Shown here: in pieces, positions 50 to 10,612 of the stretch
Layout: each line of letters begins with the position of its first letter
Position numbering within the stretch: position 1 is the stretch's first letter
From: a virus
Length of the DNA: 10,612 nucleotides
Reading direction: 5' to 3' (one strand)
Virus genome (UHGV): UHGV-0162104
Made by a program: the position numbers and the translations under genes
The notes under the pieces: generated by a model
What the model saw: only the letters and a program-made list of their open reading frames with translations
Told to the model about the DNA's origin: nothing
Database searches by the model: none

Positions 50-2995
50 TTAGTGCTTCCCTTCTATTAAGTCTAACCTAGCTTTTATTCTTTCTATTTC
101 TCTGCGCTGCCATGCTGCCTCGATATAGAATAAGAGATCAGGTCTGACCCCCCATCTAGATCCTGCTGGCGTTATTTCAACGCGCTCAATGATGTCTTCC
201 ATTACCATCACTGGATTATCATCCTCATCAACAATGATGCTCCCGTCATTATCAGTCAGCGGCATTTCCCTTTGGCCAGTAATGACGTCATCATATACTG
301 CGGGATAATCGTCATAACAAAGAAAGGCATAGCGGCATGTTGTGCTTTCTTCTTCCATGAGTCCGTGAGAAATAAGAACATCACGAAGTTGCTGCGCGAT
401 TACACCATGATGTATCCTCGCCCCTTCTTCCCCCTTTATAGCGACAGCGTTCAGCCATTTATAAGCGATATACCTGACGTCACCCCAGGCATCCAGCAAT
501 GCTTCATCAGGAGAGACCGGCTCTGTCTTTAATGTTCCGTCACTGGTAACTACAGGGTTGGAGCCAAGATAAACTGTCGAGAACCTGTTTCCCGGATCAC
601 CAAGAGCATTTACATTATCAAGATAAGGTTTAACATCTCCGTTCTCAAAAAGATGTTCGAGTGCGTTATATACCGCGCGACGTGGAGTACTGCTTCCGGA
701 ACCATGCAACGTTATCATTGCACCATCTGCTGAAGACGTTGTTTCACCGCCGCTAACGATTAATCTCTGAGCGGTAACATCATCAGACGGTACTTTCTTC
801 GCAATAATGGCGTAATTACCCTCAAGTTTGACTTCCGCGCGAACTTGTCCTGATGTACCGGCATGGACAGTCAGTGACTGGACGGCAACATCATCTGTGA
901 AATCAACGGGTACAGGAACCGTCCTCACGCCTGACGTCGACATAAAAGTAGGAAGCGTTCTGTTAGGAGTGGCTCCGTAGACAAAATCCCTTGAAACAAA
1001 TTCTTCCTGTTTAATTTTCACCCTGAAACAATACAAATCAGCCGGGTGACCATCGTGAACATAAGGATATTTTCTGTTGTTATCCCCTATGCTCCATGGG
1101 TTTAGAAAGTCTTCCCCACCGAAAATGTAGTACAGCCAGTTGTCTTTGATACAAACTGAACCAACACCAACCGCAGAGTTAACTATTCCGCCCTGATAAA
1201 TCTGATCAGTAACATTAACCCACTCTACATTATCCAGACTCCACTCATTGACGTTAACTCTGGTCATAAATGTTCTTGGATAATTTCCTGCATAACGGTT
1301 ATCAGGTTCTCCTCCTTCCCACTCACCAAATGCGCGCTCACTGCCAAAAATAATCAGCTCATCGCCAACTTTGGCAAAAGGAAGGTTTGAGTGATGAACA
1401 TTATTTGGGAAGCGAAGAGAATTCCATGATGCACCTAAATCAGAGCTTCTGTGTAATGAACTACCGGGTTGAGTACTTAATGTTCCCCTGGTCGTCAGAT
1501 ACAGAATGCCATCATAATATTTTACACATGGCTCAGATGCATTCGCCTCATATTCTGCAGGTATGCGTCTGCGAACAAAGCTACCAGGAGAACCGAAAGC
1601 ATCAGAGAAATAGAGTATCCCAAGCTCGCGTGGCTCAATATCACCATTATGGTAGCCAACAGCAAAACTGTTATCGCTAATCGTCGCAAAACTGTGAATC
1701 TCAGTAACAGGAGTGCTTCCATCAACAAAAGAAGGAATAGTTCCAAGACGGGTTTTTCTCCATGGTGACGAGTGAAATGATGTACCAAAACTCCAGTATC
1801 TACCCTCGTTATTCTGATCCACATCCTGGGTATTTTGCGTCGTAACTGTAAAAGTATTTTTATCAATAACAGTAGTCACCGTCATATTCCCGGTAACACC
1901 TGTAACACCAGAGTTTGAGAAGTTGACAAAATCACCAGCAAATAATCCGTGATCAGTAATGCGAATATAAGCGACTTGCTGATTTGCTGCTTTCGTTATA
2001 CCACCATAAACGCGAAGGCTGCGACTCATTGGGCGATCCCACAACTCTGCAACCTGCAGTTTATTTCCGCTCACGGTCCGCGTCTCAATTACAGCAAAAA
2101 GGCGATTTCTGACAACCCCCATACTCATGCAGTGATAGTTAACTGTGGGATAGTTTTCATGTAAATCTGTAAGCCATTCCGGCGTTGTCCAGGTCTTCCC
2201 GTCATCTCCTGAGCGAACCCATGCAACATGGAGGTTATTTACACCATGGCGGTCTCCAGCCATAAAAGGCGCATAGATGACATTGTCATATACAAACGTC
2301 TTATCCTGCGTCCAGGCGTTGTACCACGGTGTATCTGTAATTTTAAACAACTCTCCCTGGATAAAATCTTCAGAAGCATAAAAAAGAGGCTGACCCGGTA
2401 TTCTCTCAAATAAAAAACGAGCATTTTTAAATCGACTGACATCCGGAAGAGTTGACACTTTAAAAGTAAGCCCTCGCCCATCTATCTTTTCACCACCTGT
2501 TGCAACAGAAAGTAATTCTGATAGAGCTGATGTGTCATCATGAACACCATCACCAATAGCCCCCCAACCTCTTAGATCATAACTGTCTCTCCATCTTGCT
2601 ATCTGAAGTTTTGGGTATTTATCCGCTCCATCTGGGTCTTCTAATTGCTGCCGTAGCTGATCAGGATCATACTTCAGCACATTAGGAAAATAGAACTGCT
2701 GTGCACCATACGCGTCATAAACAGCCATAGAATGGCCTTGCACAGTTACGAATTTGGCAATCTTCCCGTTATATACTGGGAATCCTGCTGCGTTAATAAC
2801 AATTGGCTGTGCTACCTGAACATGTTTACCATCTTCTCGTTCCAGATATACAGGGATCTGGTTTTCAGGATTTACAGGGTCAGTGTCAATTTTGCCGATA
2901 TAAATTTTGCCATTGGCTACGGCTTTAAAAGAACGCGCCATAGTGAAGAGTTGCGAAGGCATACTCACTACAACATTGGCTGTAATGTCTGTCAT
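50..2995 (-). CDS. Tailspike protein: P22-type head-binding N-terminal domain, sialidase-like central domain, C-terminal intramolecular-chaperone-like domain (predicted endosialidase-type capsule depolymerase)
   Basis: Intact 981-aa ORF with ATG at 2995..2993 and a GGAGA Shine-Dalgarno about 9 nt upstream. The first ~115 residues ([11 protein letters not shown]...[12 protein letters not shown]...VTVQGHSMA...NVLKYDPDQ) match the P22 gp9 head-binding domain as I recall it. Two Asp-box motifs (S-x-D-x-G-x-T/S-W) occur: SGDDGKTW at residues 262-269 (nt ~2189..2212) and SSDLGASW at residues 517-524 (nt ~1424..1447). The C-terminal ~150 residues (...[28 protein letters not shown]...) resemble the self-cleaving chaperone domain of endosialidases and other tail fibres. 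Confidence 0.8.
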
Positions 2996-3159
2996 TTAAT
3001 TTTCTCCAGACGTAGCAATGCGGAACAAGATGCAACTTGCCCGGCATTGCATTAATGTCAGTTATGATTTGTTAACTATGAGATGAGTCTATGCAAAAAG
3101 ATCTGTTGAATATTGCGTTCTATATATTTGGTTTTTGCACATTCCTGGTGTTTGCAAAG

Positions 3160-3885
3160 CTATTCTGACAACGAATCAGACTTCGCACCCTGCGTCAGGG
3201 CGTTAATTGCCTTTTGTGCCTGCTGCATGGCTTTCTCAAACGCTGTTGATCCGCGTGTGGTGTTTGCCATTCGGAGCATTGCATTTCTGAATGGCTCGCT
3301 CTCATAGGCGCGAGTAAGAAGTCCGTAGCTTACTGCTGCGCCAGTTGTCGCCGGGTTCATTGCCGTCCCATATCCAATAATGAACGGGATGGTTTGCTGC
3401 CCTGTGGGTGTTGTTACTGCCGCTTTTGCTGCCTGCTGAGTGGACTGAAGGTAGTTTTTCAATCCTTTCAGATAAGCAGCGTCCTGACCCTTAAATGTGA
3501 TGCCAGTCTGGTTTTGCAGGATGTTAAGCTGTCGAAGGAACTGGTCAGGGGAACCGCCTGATTTCTCCATTGCCTTGGCAATGATGCCATTGCGCATTTG
3601 CGCCCTGCCAACACGACCAACTGAGTTATACAGCGTCTTAATTTCCGATTTGTTCTTGCTGAATAGCATGTTGTTGACAACTTCCGGCGTCAGGTCGCCT
3701 TTCATGAGAACATTCTTCAGCCTGGTATTCTTTAGTTTCGCCGCTTCGTCAGCGTAGACGGCATTGGCCTGCTGATATTTACGGAGAGTATCGTTGCCAA
3801 GATTCTGACCAATGGCACCATTGATATCGTCAGTCATAGCCTTGTAAACGCGCTGAATGGCGGCATCGGAACGGTTTGGTAACAC
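3160..3885 (-). CDS. Ejection/DNA-transfer-like protein, either a separate 241-aa gene with a GTG start or the C-terminal part of a frameshifted larger gene
   Basis: 241-aa ORF directly upstream of the tailspike on the same strand, the position held by ejection proteins in P22-like phages. GTG start at 3885 preceded by AAGGG. It overlaps the upstream ORF by 51 nt. Function is assigned by position and composition only. Confidence 0.45.
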   Translation of the reverse strand: MLPNRSDAAIQRVYKAMTDDINGAIGQNLGNDTLRKYQQANAVYADEAAKLKNTRLKNVLMKGDLTPEVVNNMLFSKNKSEIKTLYNSVGRVGRAQMRNGIIAKAMEKSGGSPDQFLRQLNILQNQTGITFKGQDAAYLKGLKNYLQSTQQAAKAAVTTPTGQQTIPFIIGYGTAMNPATTGAAVSYGLLTRAYESEPFRNAMLRMANTTRGSTAFEKAMQQAQKAINALTQGAKSDSLSE

Positions 3886-5153
3886 AGGTCACCCTTCACG
3901 TCCATTCTGAACTGGCTGCGCAGATCGCTTAATTGCTTCAAATCCAGAGTTACCGGGCCATTAGGACCAGCATTGCGAACAAGCTCATCACGATATGACT
4001 GAAGTTTTGAAATCGTCTCGTTATCAGCGACCTTACCAAGCTTCTGCAGGTTAGATATCTCAGTATCTATCTGCTGAATTGCTCTGGCAGGTTGAATGTT
4101 GACTCCTGCCATTGCATTCCGAACCTGCTCAAGTCTATTACCTGCGGCACGACGAATTCCTGATGTTTTCGCTTTAAGGCTGTCAATAATAACCGCTGGA
4201 TCATACTCACCGAATTTATCAGCAAATCTCTGCACCAACTGACTTCTCGCTTCCTGTTGCGTTGCTCTCATTCCGCTTGTGCCAGCCAGGGGGATATTTT
4301 CTGCTGTCGTTTGCGCCATTTTTCCGACGCGGGAAGTAGGCTGTAAGAGGTCAGTAGTATGAAGAGGTACTCCTTCACGCTCTGCAAATCTGATAGCCTG
4401 TTGCGCTTCTGGTGCGATAGCACCACGAACGCCACGATAAGCAGCACCTAATCCACGTCCGGCAGCGTTAATAGCGCCTCCAGCCAAAACACCAACGCCT
4501 AAATCGGTGGCGAGTGCTTCCGCATCATCTTTCGCACTATTTGCAGCAAGTGTTCCGACTGCGTTTTCTGCGAGAAGGCGAGTTGCACCCTGAGCAATTC
4601 GACCAGCAAGTGTTGGTGCCAGTGTTGCCGCTCTCTCAACGCCAGCAGGAGTGAGATAAGGCAATGCCTCCGCAAATACCCTGCCCTCTGTCGTTTGTGG
4701 AGTCAGCGCGCCTTGCTGAAGACCAAAGTCCTGTTCTAATCCCTGCGTTGTTACTCGTGGCGCTGGTTGATATGTCCCATCGCCAATGCCGAGTTTACCG
4801 CCAGCCCATGCCGCCGCGCTTGTTACAGCATCGGCAACTGATGCAGGTATGTTTGCCACGTTCACGCCAGCCTGCACCAGTCCGCGACCAGTCTCTTTCA
4901 CTGCTTCACCAAGGTCAGACATAAATCTACTTTGCTGTGGTTGTTGCTGTGCTACTGGTTGCTGTGTCTCCACTGGCTGCACAGATGGCAATGGATAGGC
5001 AGCATAGAAAGCTTGCTTAGCCTGCTCTGCATTTTCTCCGGCTTGCGGTGCCACGACTTCATTGAAGTATTGCTCCTGAGCCTGCGCTTTTTGTTCTGGT
5101 GCTAACGCCTGATACTGTGGAGAGGCGATAACATCTTTCCATGCTTTAGCCAT
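3834..5153 (-). CDS. Ejection/DNA-transfer-like protein (P22 gp20/gp16-like by position), Ala/Gln/Gly-rich
   Basis: 439-aa ORF with ATG at 5153..5151 and GGGGTGA about 5 nt upstream. Its start overlaps the upstream stop in a TAATG coupling motif. The last ~18 residues (DLCYQTVPMPPFSAFTRL) look non-native, which suggests a frame problem near the 3' end. Confidence 0.5.
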   Translation of the reverse strand: MAKAWKDVIASPQYQALAPEQKAQAQEQYFNEVVAPQAGENAEQAKQAFYAAYPLPSVQPVETQQPVAQQQPQQSRFMSDLGEAVKETGRGLVQAGVNVANIPASVADAVTSAAAWAGGKLGIGDGTYQPAPRVTTQGLEQDFGLQQGALTPQTTEGRVFAEALPYLTPAGVERAATLAPTLAGRIAQGATRLLAENAVGTLAANSAKDDAEALATDLGVGVLAGGAINAAGRGLGAAYRGVRGAIAPEAQQAIRFAEREGVPLHTTDLLQPTSRVGKMAQTTAENIPLAGTSGMRATQQEARSQLVQRFADKFGEYDPAVIIDSLKAKTSGIRRAAGNRLEQVRNAMAGVNIQPARAIQQIDTEISNLQKLGKVADNETISKLQSYRDELVRNAGPNGPVTLDLKQLSDLRSQFRMDVKGDLCYQTVPMPPFSAFTRL

Positions 5154-5769
5154 TAATCACCCCATAGTGAAGAAAAGTTACTGCCAGTAGTAGATTGTTG
5201 CCCTGGCATATTCTGCACCGGCTCCTGATAATCAAACTGTTTTTTAACAGTGCTCAACTTGCTTTCAAGCTGATTTCTAATCTTTCCGATAGAGTCACGA
5301 AAAGCCTTTTCACTCATTTTGGGGCTTAGGGCACCAACCGCATCGGATAATTTTTTACCCTCAGCATCTGAAAGAGCGCCCATACCCTTCAGGGACTGCA
5401 CCATAGGAAGGAATGTTTGAGCTTTAAAGGTGTCGAGCCTTGCTTCAAAGTTAGCCGCATCAGAGCCAGGAACTGTCGGAAACGCTGAGCGAATTCCTAC
5501 TGCTTTTGAAAGGCCGGGGCTTTGCTCTATCTCGTTGAGAGAATCAAGCGCGGTGCTGAACGTATCAACTGCACCCTGAGCGGCGGCCTGCCTGTCAGCG
5601 CGGGCTATGTCAGCCTTTTGCCGAACATCTGCCTGTTTCTGTTTTAGCTCTTCAAGCTTTAACTGATTGCTTTCTCTGGCTATCTGTCTGTCCAGAGCCT
5701 TTTCTTGTAATTCTGCTCTTTGTATTTCGCGGGAAAGAGCAGCATTCTGTGCGCTGATGTTCTGTCCAC
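5153..5769 (-). pseudogene. 5'-truncated gene fragment encoding the C-terminal ~205 aa of a coiled-coil protein (ejection-protein-like by position); no start codon
   Basis: The minus-strand frame is open from ~5807 to the stop at 5153 and reads ...[68 protein letters not shown]...MVQSLKGMGAL...SSLWGD. There is no ATG, GTG or TTG upstream of the internal Met at 5404. Its 5' end runs into the truncated holin in another frame. The 83-aa ORF 5153..5404 in the supplied track is its tail. Confidence 0.55.
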
Positions 5770-6012
5770 GTAGCCGATGAACACGCTCGTTATATAAGCG
5801 AGATTGCTACTTAGTCCGGCGAAGTCGAGAAGGTCACGAATGAACCAGGCGATAATGGCGCACATCGTTGCGTCGATTACTGTTTTTGTAAACGCACCGC
5901 CATTATATCTGCCGCGAAGGTACGCCATTGCAAACGCAAGGATTGCCCCGATGCCTTGTTCCTTTGCCGCGAGAATGGCGGCTAACAGGTCATGTTTTTC
6001 TGGCATCTTCAT
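5770..6012 (-). pseudogene. S: Lambda-type class I holin S, 3'-truncated after codon 81 (of 107 in lambda S as I recall it) and fused to unrelated sequence
   Basis: Translation [81 protein letters not shown] matches lambda S from memory, including the Met1-Lys2-Met3 dual-start motif. After Y81 (nt 5772..5770) it continues as [29 protein letters not shown], unrelated to the lambda S tail, while another frame opens into the downstream fragment. Confidence 0.75.
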
Positions 6013-6303: not shown

Positions 6304-6338
6304 AAAACGCAAAAAGCCCCGAGCTATTAACTCAGGGC
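6304..6338 (-). terminator. Intrinsic terminator downstream of the late promoter (tR'-like)
   Basis: On the minus strand: GCCCTGAG / TTAATAG loop / CTCGGGGC, an 8-bp stem with one internal mismatch, followed directly by TTTTTGCGTTTT. It lies about 30-60 nt downstream of the predicted promoter. Confidence 0.6.
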
Positions 6339-6367
6339 TTTATTTAACGAGTGCATTTATCCATCGT

Positions 6368-6403
6368 TGAGTCAAATTTACCCAACTTTATTCAAAAAGT
6401 CAA
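6368..6403 (-). promoter_or_regulatory. Late promoter pR'-like with the adjacent Q-utilisation region
   Basis: On the minus strand: -35 TTGACT (6403..6398), 17-nt spacer, -10 TAAATT (6380..6375), then TGACTCAACGATGG. This closely matches the lambda pR'/qut sequence as I recall it, and it sits between the Q fragment and S in the correct orientation. Confidence 0.6.
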
Positions 6404-6445: not shown

Positions 6446-6841
6446 CTAACGTGTGACCGCGTTCAAAATGTTGTCTGCGATTGACTCTTCCTTGTGGCAT
6501 TGCACCACCAGAGCGTCATACAGCGGCTTAACAGTGCGTGACCAGGTGGGTTGGGTAAGGTTTGGGATTAGCATCGTCACAGCGCGATATGCGGCGCTTG
6601 CTGGCATCCTTGAATAACCGACGCCTTTGCATCTTCCACACTCTTTCTCAACAACTCTCCCCCACTGCTCTGTTTTGGCAATATCAACCGCCCGACCTGT
6701 ACCGTGGCAATCTCTGCATCTTGCACCAGGCGTCGCGGCACTACGGCAATAATCCGCATAAGCGAATGTTGCGAGCACTTGCAGTACCTTTGCCTTAGTA
6801 TTTCCTTCAAGCTTTGCAACGCCACGGTATTTCCCCGATAC
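6446..6841 (-). pseudogene. Q: Late antiterminator Q (lambda Q family), 3' portion only; no credible start codon
   Basis: Residues ...VSGKYRGVAKLEGNTKAKVLQVLATFAYADYCRSAATPGARCRDCHGTGRAVDIAKTEQWGRVVEKECGRCKGVGYSRMPASAAYRAVTMLIPNLTQPTWSRTVKPLYDALVVQCHKEESIADNILNAVTR match the C-terminal ~130 aa of lambda Q from memory, including the CxxC...CxxC zinc-binding pattern. The frame is open upstream only to 6955, with no ATG; the track's start at 6919 is a TTG. The first ~26 residues do not resemble the Q N-terminus. Confidence 0.65.
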
Positions 6842-6872
6842 CGCAACAGCTACTCCGGCGAAAGCAAAGAAA

Positions 6873-7004
6873 ATGGCTGCTCTGATAGAAAACTGGACTC
6901 CACCTGATGGTTGGTGCAATGGGAATGATCGAGATTGGCATGAAAAAATGAAGGGCTATATCTGCGATTTCTTACGTAAATGCAACGGCTTCAGGGTGAT
7001 GTGA
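6873..7004 (+). CDS. Small ORF (43 aa), either a remnant 3' end of a deleted early gene or a small protein translationally coupled to the next gene
   Basis: ATG at 6873, translation MAALIENWTPPDGWCNGNDRDWHEKMKGYICDFLRKCNGFRVM, stop TGA at 7002..7004 and ATG of the next gene at 7006. The upstream ribosome-binding site is weak and the frame stays open upstream, antisense to the Q fragment. Confidence 0.3.
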   Translation: MAALIENWTPPDGWCNGNDRDWHEKMKGYICDFLRKCNGFRVM

Positions 7005-7005
7005 T

Positions 7006-7566
7006 ATGACCACCATTACCAAAGAACGCGCGGAGATTAAATCATTCATCACTGGTTTCCTGAGCGACCCGGCGCACGATAACCAATCTTCAGACAGCCT
7101 GCTTGCCAATGTGTTTCGTATCGCACTGGCATCGCTGGAAGCCGAACCTGTAAGCCAGACTTACAACTTGCCAGAATTAATCGAAGGGATGGAAGTTTCC
7201 ATTGATGTAAGCACTTGTGATGCTGATTTAGGTAATCGCTATTTCGGTACCGTCACCGAGGCGTTAGAACTTGATACAGCCAAGAATGGTTACATCCTCC
7301 TTGTTCAGGACGCAGAGCCAAACTTCGATGTAAATGGCAACTCTCCGGTAACTCCGGATGGTTGGATAAGCTGTAGTGAGCGAATGCCAGAAGAAACGGG
7401 TGACATTATTGTTGTTTCGGATGGCATTGTAATGTCCGGGATTTCTTATTCTCGTCGTGACGGGTTCTATATAGCCGCATTGGAGTACGACGACGATGAA
7501 CCAATTGACGGTGTAACCCACTGGATGCATCTACCAGAACCGCCGCAGGAGGTTAACCGTGGCTAA
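7006..7566 (+). CDS. Early-region protein with a C-terminal DUF551-like domain
   Basis: 186-aa ORF with ATG at 7006. The C-terminal motif ...TPDGWISCSERMPEE...VTHWMHLPEPP is characteristic of DUF551 proteins common in prophage early regions. Same strand as xis and int. Confidence 0.7.
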   Translation: MTTITKERAEIKSFITGFLSDPAHDNQSSDSLLANVFRIALASLEAEPVSQTYNLPELIEGMEVSIDVSTCDADLGNRYFGTVTEALELDTAKNGYILLVQDAEPNFDVNGNSPVTPDGWISCSERMPEETGDIIVVSDGIVMSGISYSRRDGFYIAALEYDDDEPIDGVTHWMHLPEPPQEVNRG

Positions 7567-7843
7567 CCTGCAACTTGCCGTTAAAGGTGAATATTTCGAC
7601 CAGATGAAGTCAGGCGAGAAAACGGAAGAGTATCGCCTGTGTAATGACTACTGGAAAAAGCGCCTCGTTAACCGTAAGTATGACCGCCTGATTATCACAA
7701 AGGGATATCCGAAGCGCGACGACTTCAGTCGCAGAATTGATGTTCCGTATGACGGATATGAAATCAAGACAATCACACATCCGCACTTCGGCGATAAACC
7801 GGTAAAGGTGTTCGCGATAAAGGTGAATATCGGCAATGAATAA
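7559..7843 (+). CDS. ASCH-like (PUA-fold) domain protein
   Basis: 94-aa ORF with GTG start at 7559 and AGGAGG 6 nt upstream, overlapping the previous stop. It contains GEKTEEYR, which fits the ASCH GxKxxExR signature. Confidence 0.55.
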   Translation: MANLQLAVKGEYFDQMKSGEKTEEYRLCNDYWKKRLVNRKYDRLIITKGYPKRDDFSRRIDVPYDGYEIKTITHPHFGDKPVKVFAIKVNIGNE

Positions 7844-7885: not shown

Positions 7886-8686
7886 ATGACCATCCACTTT
7901 CACGGCAGCCCAATATGGGGTGATGAGCATGCCCCTACAGATATGCTGATTAAAGCCCTTTACCGTGATGGTGGGGCTTTTGTTTCATTTGCCAGACCAG
8001 AGCAGATGAAAAAGATTGCCATGTTCCCTTGTGATATACGCCTTGATAACGGCGCTTTTAGCGAATGGATGAAAGCATTAAAGAAAGGCACTCCGGTAGA
8101 CTGGAGTAAGAGACGAGCAAAATTCTACGACTTTGTTGGGAAGTGGTTCAGCAGAATTGAATGGTTTCTTATACCTGACGTTATCGAAGGGACAGAGGCA
8201 GAAAACGACGAGCAGATTGAGTTGGTTCCTGATTGGCTAAAATCAAAAGCGGTTCCGGTCTGGCATACCGACGAATCAATTGAACGTCTTTTACGCCTTT
8301 CTGGCAAATTTGAATGGGTGGCGATTGGATGCTGCGGCCCACACAGGCACATACGCTCTAAATGGTGGGAACAGAGAATGGATGAAGTTTTCACTGAGCT
8401 TTATATCAATCGTAATTTGAAAGTGAAAATTCATGGTCTTCGAATGCTCGACGTGAGAGTTCTTGGTATGTATCCGTTCGCCAGTGCGGATTCTACTAAT
8501 GTTGCTGTTAACGTACCGAAGACAGAGAAGCGATTTCCTGAGATTACCGACAAACTGGCACGTACAGCTGTACTTCGCGCAGCTATTGAAAAGGTGCACC
8601 CACCATCGATATCAGCGTGGGTAGACAGAAAGATGAGAGAGCCGGCGCAAGCCGGTTTTTTATTTGAATTCATCGACGCCGCTTAA
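7886..8686 (+). CDS. Hypothetical early-region protein of unknown function (266 aa)
   Basis: ATG at 7886 with GGGGA 5-6 nt upstream; long ORF on the same strand as the neighbouring early genes. No motif I can assign with confidence; it has an N-terminal HFHG and an internal GCCGPHRH. Confidence 0.6.
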   Translation: MTIHFHGSPIWGDEHAPTDMLIKALYRDGGAFVSFARPEQMKKIAMFPCDIRLDNGAFSEWMKALKKGTPVDWSKRRAKFYDFVGKWFSRIEWFLIPDVIEGTEAENDEQIELVPDWLKSKAVPVWHTDESIERLLRLSGKFEWVAIGCCGPHRHIRSKWWEQRMDEVFTELYINRNLKVKIHGLRMLDVRVLGMYPFASADSTNVAVNVPKTEKRFPEITDKLARTAVLRAAIEKVHPPSISAWVDRKMREPAQAGFLFEFIDAA

Positions 8687-8743: not shown

Positions 8744-9088
8744 ATGTCAGATTTGGCTATGAAGGTTTTGAAATGGCAATCAACTGGCGATGTCGGCATC
8801 AGTAGCGCAACTCTTGCCTCAATCGCATGTGGACTGAAAAAGAATATCTATGGTCATCACTTCGGCGCTCCACATGACGCAGCCGATTTCCGACGATGCG
8901 TTGCACTTGTTGAGCAGATTCCAGAAATCAGAGATTCATTCGACAAGGTTGCAAAGCGCGTTCCGGCATTCAAAGGCATCCTCAACGAATGGGATTCCCT
9001 CGTTGCTCTGTTGAAGTCTGAAATGAAGATACACGGAAACAAAGCACCAGAAACTTACAGAAGAATTAGCGAGCTACGCAAGGACTAA
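8744..9088 (+). CDS. Hypothetical early-region protein (114 aa)
   Basis: ATG at 8744 with GGAGA 6 nt upstream. No recognisable motif. Confidence 0.5.
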   Translation: MSDLAMKVLKWQSTGDVGISSATLASIACGLKKNIYGHHFGAPHDAADFRRCVALVEQIPEIRDSFDKVAKRVPAFKGILNEWDSLVALLKSEMKIHGNKAPETYRRISELRKD

Positions 9089-9178: not shown

Positions 9179-9469
9179 GTGGAAGAAGAAATCTTCACTC
9201 GTGAAGAAGCTGCGTCGTATCTGAAGGTAGACAAAGGCACTATCACGCAGTGGATACGAAGTGGACGACTTCAGGCCGCAAAGATAAATCCAGATAAACC
9301 TAAAAGCCCATATCGCATTTGCAAGTCAGACTGCATTGCGGCGCTTAAGTCTGTGAGACACAATAGCGCGGTGAATGCGGTTGATGTGCAGGAGGTTAAA
9401 GCATGTCAATCAAACTACGCGGTGGCACGTGGCACTGCGATTTCGTCGCGCCAGATGGATCAAGATTAG
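9179..9469 (+). CDS. xis: Excisionase (Xis/AlpA-like HTH DNA-binding protein), possibly shortened at its C-terminus by the same indel that disrupts int
   Basis: GTG start at 9179 with GGAG 7 nt upstream. The N-terminus FTREEAASYLKVDKGTITQWIRSGRL is a typical excisionase helix-turn-helix. It lies immediately upstream of and overlapping int. Stop TAG at 9467..9469. Confidence 0.7.
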   Translation: MEEEIFTREEAASYLKVDKGTITQWIRSGRLQAAKINPDKPKSPYRICKSDCIAALKSVRHNSAVNAVDVQEVKACQSNYAVARGTAISSRQMDQD

Positions 9470-10562
9470 ACGCTCTCTTGAAACATCGGACAAAAGGCAA
9501 GCGCAAGAACTTCACGATCGTCTGAAAGCAGAAGCGTGGAGAGTAAAAAATCTCGGGGAATCACCGAAAAAGCTATTCAAGGAAGCCTGCATACGGTGGC
9601 TGCGTGAGAAATCGGATAAGAAGTCCATTGATGATGACAAGAGCATTATATCGTTCTGGATGTTGCACTTCAGAGAAACCATTCTCTCTGACATAACAAC
9701 AGAAAAAATAATGGAGGCGGTAGACGGGATGGAAAACCGCCGCCATCGCCTGAACTGGGAGATGAGCCGGGACAGGTGTTTGCGGCTTGGCAAGCCAGTG
9801 CCGGAGTATAAACCAAAGCTGGCAAGCAAAGGAACGAAGACGCGGCATCTGGCAATACTTCGCGCTATTCTCAATATGGCTGTTGAATGGGGATGGCTTG
9901 ACAGGACGCCAAAAATATCAACACCACGCGTTAAGAATGGACGAATCAGATGGCTTACAGAGGAGGAATCGAAGCGCCTGTTTGCAGAAATTGTTCCTCA
10001 TATCTTCCCTGTGGTCATGTTTGCAATCACGACAGGCCTTCGCCGTTCCAACGTTACAGACCTTGAGTGGTCACAGGTCGATCTGGATAAGAAAATGGCA
10101 TGGATGCACCCTGATGAAACAAAAGCTGGCAATGCGATCGGAGTTCCTCTTAACGAAACCGCATGCCAGATATTAAGAAAACAGCAGGGACTCCATAAGA
10201 GATGGGTATTTGTCCACACCAAACCTGCCTACCGAAGCGACGGAACAAAAACAGCAGCGGTAAGGAAGATGAGAACCGACAGCAACAAAGCATGGAAGGG
10301 AGCGTTAAAGCGGGCAGGCATTAGCAATTTCCGCTTCCATGACCTGAGGCATACCTGGGCAAGCTGGCTGGTTCAGTCCGGTGTCTCTCTTCTTGCACTT
10401 AAAGAAATGGGAGGATGGGAAACTCTCGAAATGGTTCAAAGATACGCTCACCTTTCAGCCGGGCATCTCACCGAGCACGCGAGCAAAATCGATGCGATTA
10501 TAAGTCGCAATGGCACAAATACGGCACAAGAGGAGAACGTAGTTTACTTAAATGCGAGGTAA
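9403..10562 (+). CDS. int: Tyrosine site-specific integrase (P22 Int family) with an apparent 1-nt frameshift near codon 20-21; possible pseudogene or sequencing error
   Basis: ATG at 9403 with GGAGG 7 nt upstream gives MSIKLRGGTWHCDFVAPDGS..., resembling the P22-family Int N-terminus as I recall it, then stops at 9523..9525. The body of the protein is in another frame (track ORF 9375..10562) and contains the catalytic signatures HDLRHTWASW and VQRYAHL. Stop at 10560..10562, 15 nt before the tRNA 3' end. Confidence 0.85.
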
Positions 10563-10576
10563 CTTATTGATTTAAA

Positions 10577-10612
10577 TGGTGCCGATAATAGGAGTCGAAC
10601 CTACGACCTTCG
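10577..10612 (-). tRNA. thrW: tRNA-Thr (thrW-like), 3' portion only; the gene continues beyond the window. Likely overlaps the prophage attachment core.
   Basis: The plus-strand sequence TGGTGCCGATAATAGGAGTCGAACCTACGACCTTCG is the reverse complement of a tRNA 3' end (...CGAAGGTCGTAGGTTCGACTCCTATTATCGGCACCA) with T-arm, acceptor stem and CCA. It matches E. coli thrW as I recall it, the known integration target of P22. Confidence 0.8.

Follow-up and report, generated by a model that had tools for sequence, protein, structure and literature searches.

The locus described here raises the question of why a tailspike gene remains intact in a prophage whose lytic genes are missing or broken, and of whether such a gene can still be expressed or passed on. 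The window (the whole stretch of DNA analysed, 10,612 nt of virus genome UHGV-0162104) carries at 50..2995, on the minus strand, an uninterrupted ORF that starts with ATG and encodes an endosialidase (K1 polysialic-acid depolymerase) tailspike of 981 residues. The ORF has the same length as that of SiaK1 from phage CUS-3 (981 aa, 2946 nt), and the two proteins share 97.8% amino acid identity. A GGAGA ribosome-binding site is found at 3007..3003, 7 nt 5' of the ATG, and the six Pfam domains matched by the protein (Head_binding, End_N_terminal, End_beta_propel, End_beta_barrel, End_tail_spike and Peptidase_S74) are all full length. The initial annotation had described the gene as full length, with a good ribosome-binding site and a conserved P22-type head-binding domain, and both descriptions hold. 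The head-binding domain covers residues 1-113 (window 2657..2995, minus strand; PF09008, E 4.5e-64), and the N-terminus of the protein matches the N-terminal structures of Sf6 gp14 and P22 gp9 (E 4e-60 to 1e-45).

The remainder of the protein corresponds to a complete endosialidase of family GH58 (PF12218, PF12217 with E 8e-233, PF12195 and PF12219), with the N-terminal extension, a six-bladed beta-propeller that carries an inserted beta-barrel, and a beta-helical stalk. Residues 146-817, comprising the catalytic propeller, the barrel and the stalk, align from end to end with endoNF of the lytic phage K1F (PDB 1V0E, 3GVL; phmmer, E = 0). The self-cleaving C-terminal chaperone domain begins at S818; PF13884 (Peptidase S74) is found at residues 818-878 and the match to the endoNF structure 3GW6 spans residues 698-979. 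In the alignment to endoNF, the cleavage motif VVT-S818-DGTL-K823 retains the S818/K823 dyad. The catalytic residues of endoNF (E581, R596 and R647 in the numbering of Stummeyer et al. 2005) align with the glutamate of ASEPC and with the arginines of TTRGT and GSERA, and all are kept. Thus, the two proteins resemble each other in the catalytic part with its Glu/Arg/Arg residues, in the stalk and in the Ser-Lys dyad of the chaperone, whereas the N-terminal adaptor is of the T7 type in K1F and of the P22 type here. A further difference is that the window allele has D where endoNF has G893. This derived change, G800D, is carried by the window's own tailspike allele and affects a glycine that is invariant in seven homologues as well as in endoNF; the residue is not mentioned in a deep-mutational-scan preprint on K1F. 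The tailspike, if made, should form a trimer, lose its chaperone domain by cleavage at S818 and display the predicted enzyme activity, that is, cleavage of alpha-2,8-polysialic acid. When the tailspike was searched against GTDB species representatives, the only matches were relatives of the head-binding domain (E. coli, Pantoea, Arsenophonus, Yokenella), and no endosialidase was retrieved.

The gene has a mosaic structure, in which upstream DNA of the Sf6/G4-9 type is followed by a patchwork head-binding domain and by a body of the CUS-3 type; the body is 99.1% identical to that found in an epsilon15-like phage. SiaK1 of CUS-3 (E. coli K1 RS218, CP000711) has been characterised experimentally; its record and PMC9659370 cite Stummeyer et al. 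2006 and King et al. 2007. Both tailspikes have 981 residues and the domain order head-binding, endosialidase, self-cleaving chaperone, and each gene is followed directly by neuO in the same orientation. CUS-3 differs in carrying a different mosaic of the head-binding domain, in having ant/mnt/arc immI genes where the remnant has a 165-nt spacer of the Sf6 type between gp16 and the tailspike, and in using argW and IntS, where the remnant has int and att of the thrW (SfX/mEp213) type; moreover, the remnant is gutted. The late region of the Shigella phage Sf6, where gene 13 (the homologue of P22 gp16) precedes the tailspike gene 14, shares 94% DNA identity over gp20', gp16 and the spacer, which in Sf6 also measures 164-165 nt and lacks an immI region. 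In this case it is the tailspike body that differs, since that of Sf6 is an endorhamnosidase and only the first ~114 residues can be aligned (86%). The earlier suggestion that the gene could be taken up by other phages gains in plausibility from this mosaic structure, which indicates that exchanges do affect the tailspike gene.

What surrounds the tailspike is a defective (cryptic) P22-like prophage. The element measures 12,061 bp and is bounded by thrW and a repeat of its 3' part; thrW lies at 2344..2419 of a longer scaffold (L007), with a second copy of its 3' half at 14435..14480. The window holds only the 3' part of this tRNA-Thr gene, on the attL side (10577..10612, minus strand), the tRNA extending past the window end. 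With no more than 36 nt of thrW inside the window, a tRNA scan of it gave no hit, and a search of the window against Rfam at the gathering threshold was likewise negative. The remnant has lost all repressor, replication, terminase, portal, coat and tail genes. As the initial annotation had proposed, the genes upstream of the tailspike are decayed. The gene for the DNA-ejection protein of the P22 gp16 type (3160..5153, minus strand) is a pseudogene, in which the loss of 4 bp (GAGC) near 3888 has left two ORFs, 3834..5153 and 3160..3885. The neighbouring gp20-type ejection gene (5153..5776, minus strand) has lost 224 codons and retains residues 225-432. It forms the left side of a deletion junction, J1, at a 3-bp 'GTA' microhomology (5770-5772), where it is joined out of frame to the N-terminal 81 of the 107 codons of a lambda S-type holin (5770..6012, minus strand); a fusion ORF of 110 aa results (5680..6012). 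The gene for the lambda-type antiterminator Q (6446..6842, minus strand) is reduced from 207 codons to the C-terminal 132, its N-terminus and promoter having been deleted. The second junction, J2, lies at a 7-bp microhomology (6836-6842) and has on its right side the 3' fragment of an early-left gene resembling Sf6 gene 22 (6836..7005, plus strand).

Four intact early-left (ea) ORFs follow on the plus strand, encoding a DUF551 protein (7006..7566), an ASCH protein (7559..7843), a Tgt/DpdA-like protein of 266 aa (7886..8686) and a protein similar to mEp213 gp26 (8744..9088). Then come the overlapping xis and int genes of the SfX/mEp213 thrW type (9179..10562, plus strand). The disruption of the integrase that had been claimed is real and consists of a 1-nt deletion at ~9466, in the xis/int overlap, which frame-shifts int codons 1 to ~20 and the last 20 codons of xis. 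Residues 21-387 of the integrase, which is 98% identical to thrW-type integrases of mEp213 and G4-9, stay in one frame. The tailspike had also been called an orphan; this view needs correction, since an intact neuO gene, for a capsule O-acetyltransferase, starts 153 nt after the tailspike stop codon, just beyond the window, and the four early-left ORFs are intact too. The thrW remnant of E. coli G4/9 was considered as a simple derivative and rejected: it has the same gp20 breakpoint but another partner sequence, another DUF551 allele and 6% divergence.

Taken together, the tailspike is likely to be the intact gene of a P22-like prophage that decayed recently, combines DNA of the Sf6 and CUS-3 types and is located at thrW; lacking a promoter of its own, the gene is predicted to be silent unless Q is supplied in trans. 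The prophage inserted at thrW, and its host belongs to an Escherichia lineage distinct from typical E. coli. Loss of the immunity/replication block and of the lysis/morphogenesis block is due to two deletions at microhomologies, and two small deletions account for the broken gp16 and xis/int. The attR end is left with gp16', the tailspike and neuO. The locus offers a well-documented case of how a prophage decays, in which the kind and sequence of the lesions are resolved to the nucleotide.

The predicted silence concerns late transcription, which the initial annotation had considered lost. This is only partly so. No functional Q gene exists in cis, as only the C-terminal 132 codons are left, without an upstream promoter. 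The lambda-type late promoter PR' (TTGACT-17-TAAATT, 6403..6375), qut and tR' (6341..6313, a hairpin followed by a T-run) are, however, intact on the minus strand at 6313..6403. From the -35 hexamer through tR', the sequence is 100% identical to that of the viable phage HK544, in whose record PR' and qut are annotated. PR' lies 3.4 kb upstream of the tailspike in the same orientation, with only weak terminator-like sites in between. Because these elements are identical to those of a viable phage, tailspike expression is probably gated by Q provided in trans. With a truncated Q and no promoter of its own, the gene is thus predicted to be silent in the carrier cell and to be transcribed only when another lambdoid phage brings in a Q of the lambda/HK97 type.

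This raises the possibility that the remnant acts as a donor activated by helper phages. A lambda/HK97-type Q acting at PR'-qut would allow transcription through holin', gp20' and gp16' into the tailspike and neuO. The endosialidase might then decorate P22-like virions by means of its head-binding domain (phenotypic mixing); alternatively, the gene might be recombined into P22-like phages through homology in gp16 and the head-binding domain. The intact PR' region, its orientation relative to the tailspike and the completeness of the head-binding domain are in keeping with this idea. Moreover, ~2.6 kb of gp16/gp20' upstream of the tailspike are 94-96% identical to Sf6-like phages, and the mosaic gene attests that exchanges of this kind have occurred. 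Cryptic lambdoid prophages are known as recombination donors, with lambda acquiring qsr' from DLP12 and the Rac-derived lambda reverse as examples. They resemble the present remnant in being defective prophages whose late-region modules are still usable and lie between stretches homologous to active phages; they differ from it in that no capture event has been observed at the present locus. On the other hand, retention of PR' may be a mere accident of where the two deletions ended, and a P22-like phage would have to possess an endosialidase beforehand in order to infect a K1 cell. Downstream homology for a second crossover is restricted to neuO and att, and the gp16 variants match sampled phage alleles at only 1 of 5 positions, which gives no sign of ongoing gene conversion. 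For these reasons we regard the donor scenario as rather unlikely. A stronger version, in which the remnant would be a helper-dependent tailspike and capsule-modification cassette inducible by the Q of any co-resident lambda/HK97-type phage, is very doubtful. If it were true, infection by or induction of an unrelated lambdoid phage would release tailspikes that strip the K1 capsule, P22-like virions could be re-armed with K1 specificity and the module could spread across phage types and Escherichia species. More generally, if gating by Q is true, defective prophages would serve as live reservoirs in which unrelated helper phages could switch on host-range determinants, with a bearing on the spread of capsule-specific host range and on phage therapy against K1 strains.

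Transcription from a promoter within the spacer, apart from the late operon, would make Q dispensable, and the initial annotation had indeed suggested that the region 2996..3160 holds a promoter. The gp16-tailspike spacer (~165 nt, 2996..3159, minus strand) is of the Sf6 type, without immI genes. It is AT-rich and 91-96% conserved with Sf6 and G4/9, two features that speak for a promoter; upstream of position 3010 it is unrelated to CUS-3 and 720R6. Nevertheless, a promoter scan of 2996..3160 at the standard threshold returned no site, and the best match under relaxed conditions (TTAACA-18-TGCAAT) was equalled by 51% of shuffles, with the caveat that consensus scans may miss weak or non-sigma-70 promoters. 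Moreover, the conservation of the spacer is that of the flanking coding DNA, and the Sf6 record marks promoters elsewhere but none ahead of its tailspike gene. The proposal therefore finds no backing in what looks like an ordinary Sf6-type spacer, and an own promoter appears very improbable.

Another suggestion of the initial annotation was that the tailspike is retained under selection. The dN/dS comparison with relatives gives pairwise values of 0.12-0.19, and the head-binding domain shows a dS of 0.39-0.54 against the CUS-3 type. These low ratios reflect the period that the gene spent in functional phages. After the gutting, the tailspike changed only twice, by one nonsynonymous (G800D) and one synonymous substitution, so that dN/dS has no power to test selection over this period. 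Furthermore, the other coding DNA, ~7.6 kb, has taken 2 small indels, which gives a calculated probability of ~0.46 that 2.95 kb escaped any hit. The gene has probably stayed intact because the decay is young and lesions are still few; recent decay suffices as an explanation, and selection on the tailspike is not demonstrated. Thus the observation of an intact gene stands, and its reading as retention under selection does not follow.

Domestication of the depolymerase, with the host keeping it under purifying selection for capsule remodelling or shedding or for interference with K1 phages, would fit the conserved catalytic and maturation residues, the low dN/dS against relatives and an ORF that is open in all copies. 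It would also fit the retention of the tailspike in an independent remnant: in E. coli 19AR1321, a gutted CUS-3 prophage of 11.6 kb at argW keeps intS, neuO and a tailspike of 981 aa. Its deletion is, however, adjacent to ISEc52, and the position of the IS explains the retention; in the present remnant, two microhomology deletions have left an island of Q', PR' and holin' between them. Moreover, the low dN/dS built up in functional phages, the single nonsynonymous change after gutting (against one synonymous) falls on an invariant glycine, the tailspike has neither a promoter nor a working holin for release, and no signal-peptide-like segment can be read in its N-terminal sequence. An endosialidase in the cytoplasm would presumably leave capsule synthesis unaffected or impair it. 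Domestication is accordingly highly improbable. It may be added that the gutted prophages at thrW and argW both end their deletions just short of the tailspike, which counts against the view of the gene as a passenger.

The preferred explanation, recent decay, presupposes that the lesions are real. A metagenome scaffold matches the window at 100% identity, and the junction-specific holin-fusion ORF of 110 aa is present on 12 contigs from ~10 samples, including an NCBI isolate assembly, GCA_019839765.1. All 12 show identical junctions and small deletions, which therefore cannot be assembly errors, and the 3-bp and 7-bp microhomologies are too short for the junctions to be assembler joins. That the prophage is really intact and its disruptions artefacts might be argued from the match to a metagenome scaffold and from the fact that neither junction is shared by any complete E. 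coli genome, but this idea has a negligible probability given lesions that recur across different assemblers and sources and indels that lie outside homopolymer runs. No complete E. coli matches the flanks of the remnant at more than 95.9% identity, and on this sequence evidence the host lineage is an Escherichia outside typical E. coli.

Across the prophage, the copies of the remnant are 99.96-100% identical, which speaks for a recent decay. The ORF is open in every copy that covers the tailspike, namely in 4-5 haplotype contigs of full length and in 2 partial ones. Two of the copies (L024 and L027) have a further 2-nt deletion in gp16, at 4315-4316; the tailspike staying open while gp16 gained this deletion points towards selection, in a tiny sample. 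The gp16 pseudogene shows 5 substitutions among remnants, 4 of which are synonymous. Gene conversion from P22-like phages was considered as the origin of this excess variation and found no support, with only 1 of the 5 matching any sampled allele. An IMG/VR contig from an intact-type phage (L034) has the same head-binding patch and a tailspike that differs at 5 of 606 codons; its gp16, gp20, gp7, gp14, gp26, gp10, gp4 and coat genes are intact, and this closeness likewise speaks for a recent decay. Two other hits (H15 and H16) at first resembled small remnants but proved to come from prophages of full size, in which this is the usual order of genes across att.

The tailspike also adjoins neuO, the lysogenic-conversion gene that, as argued in the literature, hosts keep from such prophages. 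CUS-3-like prophages commonly decay with neuO kept, as in CE10, SCU-175 and others (PMC9659370). Those cases resemble the present one in the large loss of phage genes and the retention of neuO, but they are located at argW or pgl-bioA in E. coli. The remnant thus makes thrW the third chromosomal site for CUS-3-like endosialidase/neuO elements and extends their host range beyond typical E. coli. The new site and host are relevant because K1 capsule genes have been reported in cryptic-clade Escherichia, for example E. marmotae (PMC10457355). By inference, neuO would be the selected cargo of the remnant. The gene encodes 223 aa with 2 differences from the crystallised NeuO (3JQY). In its heptad VNTR, no tandem AAGACTC repeat tract is detected; the VNTR is reduced to 3 imperfect in-frame copies (AAGATTC-AAAACTC-AAGACTC), compared with 19 perfect copies in CUS-3, and neuO is here a natural 'locked-ON' allele.

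The longest ORF of the window (50..2995, minus strand) encodes 981 aa from an ATG preceded at 7 nt by a GGAGA motif. Six Pfam domains are found in the product, each at full length: Head_binding, End_N_terminal, End_beta_propel, into which End_beta_barrel is inserted, End_tail_spike and Peptidase_S74. In comparisons with solved structures, the alignment to phage K1F endoNF runs the whole length of residues 146-817 (E = 0), residues 698-979 match the endoNF chaperone domain, and residues 1-118 match the head-binding domains of the Sf6 and P22 tailspikes. The endoNF alignment places conserved E, R and R at the positions of the endoNF catalytic residues Glu581, Arg596 and Arg647; the Ser-Lys pair of the cleavage site is present as S818 and K823. 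Moreover, siaK1, the endosialidase tailspike gene of the K1-specific P22-like prophage CUS-3, has exactly the same length, with 97.8% protein identity, and its GenBank record marks endosialidase activity as experimentally shown. On the strength of the domains, the endoNF residues and the likeness to siaK1, the ORF is predicted to be a complete K1-capsule depolymerase tailspike. Its description in the initial annotation as full length, with a good ribosome-binding site and a P22-type head-binding domain, is thus confirmed.

The prophage around this gene is indeed gutted. Leftward from thrW, which lies at the window's right end, the order is int/xis, early-left ORFs, a gene-22-like fragment, Q', PR'-qut-tR', holin', gp20', gp16', the 165-nt spacer and the tailspike; int/xis, Q, holin, gp20 and gp16 are all damaged, and four early-left ORFs are intact. 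At 6836-6842 (7 bp microhomology), a fragment resembling Sf6 gene 22 is joined to codon 76 of a lambda-type Q gene. At 5770-5772 (3-bp 'GTA'), the holin gene, of which codons 1-81 out of 107 remain, is joined to codon 225 of a P22 gp20 homologue. From these two junctions, it follows that two deletions took out the entire immunity/replication block and the entire lysis/head/tail block. In addition, a single-base deletion at ~9466 shifts the frame of both int and the overlapping xis, and 4 bp are missing from the gp16 homologue. One intact early-left ORF (7886..8686, plus strand, 266 aa), equal in length to mEp213 gp32, matches PHROG 887 'queuine tRNA-ribosyltransferase' (E 7e-101) without a Pfam match, and is a putative Tgt/DpdA-like moron.

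A 32-kb metagenome scaffold (L007) contains the whole window at 100% identity. A 110-aa holin-gp20' fusion ORF, impossible without the holin/gp20 deletion, was used as a junction marker and recurs in 12 contigs from ~10 samples; among the sources are an NCBI isolate assembly, ENA metagenomes and Logan assemblies. The sole gap in the alignments of all 12 to the scaffold is one extra 2-nt deletion in gp16, so both junctions and both small deletions are common to all. Assembly error as the cause of the disruptions, which would have undone the initial reading, is therefore excluded. Neither junction is present in any of 5,426 complete E. coli genomes.

The tailspike was called an orphan, which does not hold. 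An intact neuO, the capsule O-acetyltransferase gene, lies 153 nt past the tailspike stop codon on the same strand, outside the window (L007 13100..13771; 153 nt beyond window position 1). Its product, a 223-aa hexapeptide acetyltransferase, differs at 2 residues from the crystallised polysialic-acid O-acetyltransferase NeuO (PDB 3JQY). The phase-variation tract consists of three imperfect heptads, in frame (AAGATTC AAAACTC AAGACTC), whereas that of CUS-3 has 19 perfect copies; the gene resembles a naturally occurring ON allele, phase-locked and with a minimal number of repeats. NeuO is reported to protect against K1 phages, and CUS-3-like prophages often decay, to ~8 kb, with neuO kept (PMC9659370; PMC13001214). 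The remnant is a decayed CUS-3-like prophage keeping its endosialidase tailspike and neuO. Such prophages were already known; the integration site, the mosaic and the host lineage are new here. An independent argW remnant of 11.6 kb in E. coli 19AR1321 (tRNA-Arg - intS - neuO - intact 981-aa tailspike - ant' - ISEc52 - erf ... dsdC) arose by deletion beside ISEc52, which its relatives carry in ant.

Why the tailspike stayed intact is sufficiently accounted for by recent decay. Prophage DNA is 99.96-100% identical among the remnant copies, and only one synonymous and one nonsynonymous change (G800D) separate their tailspikes. The progenitor phage has an intact-type relative in L034 (IMGVR_UViG_2917865565_000002, 1..12289), whose virion module (gp16, gp20, gp7, gp14, gp26, gp10, gp4, coat) is intact, with both gp16 (665 aa) and gp20 (431 aa) uninterrupted. 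It has an Sf6-type spacer and the same head-binding patch as the window, and its tailspike shows 5 codon differences over 606 covered codons. Given 2 small indels in ~7.6 kb of other coding DNA of the element, we calculate a probability of ~0.46 that 2.95 kb escapes. Retention under selection had been proposed, and pairwise dN/dS against CUS-3-type alleles is indeed low (0.12-0.19), with 10 synonymous and 4 nonsynonymous codons unique to the window allele in the enzyme body; this value, however, reflects a history spent mostly in working phages, and with only two changes after the gutting the data show selection neither for nor against. G800D (window 597), 18 residues before the cleavage serine, is the derived state and is carried by the window haplotype; the glycine is invariant in seven homologues and endoNF (G893), and sister copies L024, L027 and L028 keep it.

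The gp16 pseudogene (3160..5153) of the otherwise near-identical copies L024-L030 carries five substitutions, four of them synonymous in the old frame, and a 2-nt deletion at 4315-4316. Only one of these five variants matches a sampled phage allele. Unlike this pseudogene, ~2.7 kb of other non-functional DNA shows zero changes.

Pick-up by other phages had also been suggested. DNA upstream of 3010, through gp16, is of Sf6/G4-9 type; a head-binding-domain patch (2783..2878), unlike Sf6 or CUS-3, is common only to L034; from 2648 downward, the DNA is of CUS-3 type. Over 2474 to 82, the endosialidase body also shares 99.1% DNA identity with the tail fibre of phages ZX5 and Phi05_2388, epsilon15-like (Uetakevirus) temperate phages with a different N-terminal adaptor, which indicates that podovirus genera exchanged the module very recently. 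The mosaic gene shows that the tailspike module moves between phages, but it is no proof that this remnant served as donor.

A promoter of its own in the 165-nt spacer (2996..3160) finds no support: a consensus scan of the spacer gave none, the best relaxed candidate was equalled by 51% of shuffles, and the spacer is the usual Sf6-type gene 16/tailspike spacer (91-96% identical to Sf6 and G4/9), in which the Sf6 record annotates no promoter. Rfam returned nothing. Q-dependent late transcription had been thought lost. This is true only in cis, where the Q gene is truncated, since a lambda-type late promoter (TTGACT-17-TAAATT) with qut and tR' hairpin (6313..6403), directed toward the tailspike, is base-for-base that of viable phage HK544. 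The tailspike lies 3.4 kb from this promoter, with just two weak terminator-like sites in between. Because there is no Q, the tailspike would be silent in the carrier cell, and any read-through would be prone to Rho termination over the long pseudogene stretches left untranslated. A lambda/HK97-type Q from another phage would switch on its transcription; such helper-gated expression is the most interesting open possibility, although we hold it to be improbable. Overall, the observation of an intact tailspike in a gutted prophage stands, and its interpretation does so in part.

In the thrW remnant of E. coli G4/9 (L004 13290), the gp20 fragment stops at the same nucleotide as at window 5770..5772 (...CTGTCCACGTA). 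Both remnants have the 'GTA' microhomology at the gp20 end, with different partners (holin in the window, the DUF551 3' end in G4/9), and identity across their common DNA reaches only 94%. No other complete genome has the G4/9 junction. The common breakpoint could be a hot spot or reflect shared ancestry.

On the longer scaffold, the element spans 12,061 bp, with thrW at one border and the repeated thrW 3' half at the other. This repeat (2 mismatches) and the integrase fragment that follows (L007 14435..14653), a 51-aa C-terminal piece of a second integrase (87% identity to the element's first), are left from an older element that sat at this tRNA, and mark attR. Host flanks (L007 1..2340 and 15400..22946; flanks of L024, L025 and L026) are at most 95.9% identical to E. 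coli (proBA), with 93-94% for phoE and proB and 87% for the right flank, which makes a cryptic-clade Escherichia the probable carrier. For E. marmotae, K1 capsule genes have been reported (PMC10457355). In proA, 39 SNPs between contigs carrying identical remnants indicate a recombination tract adjoining thrW.
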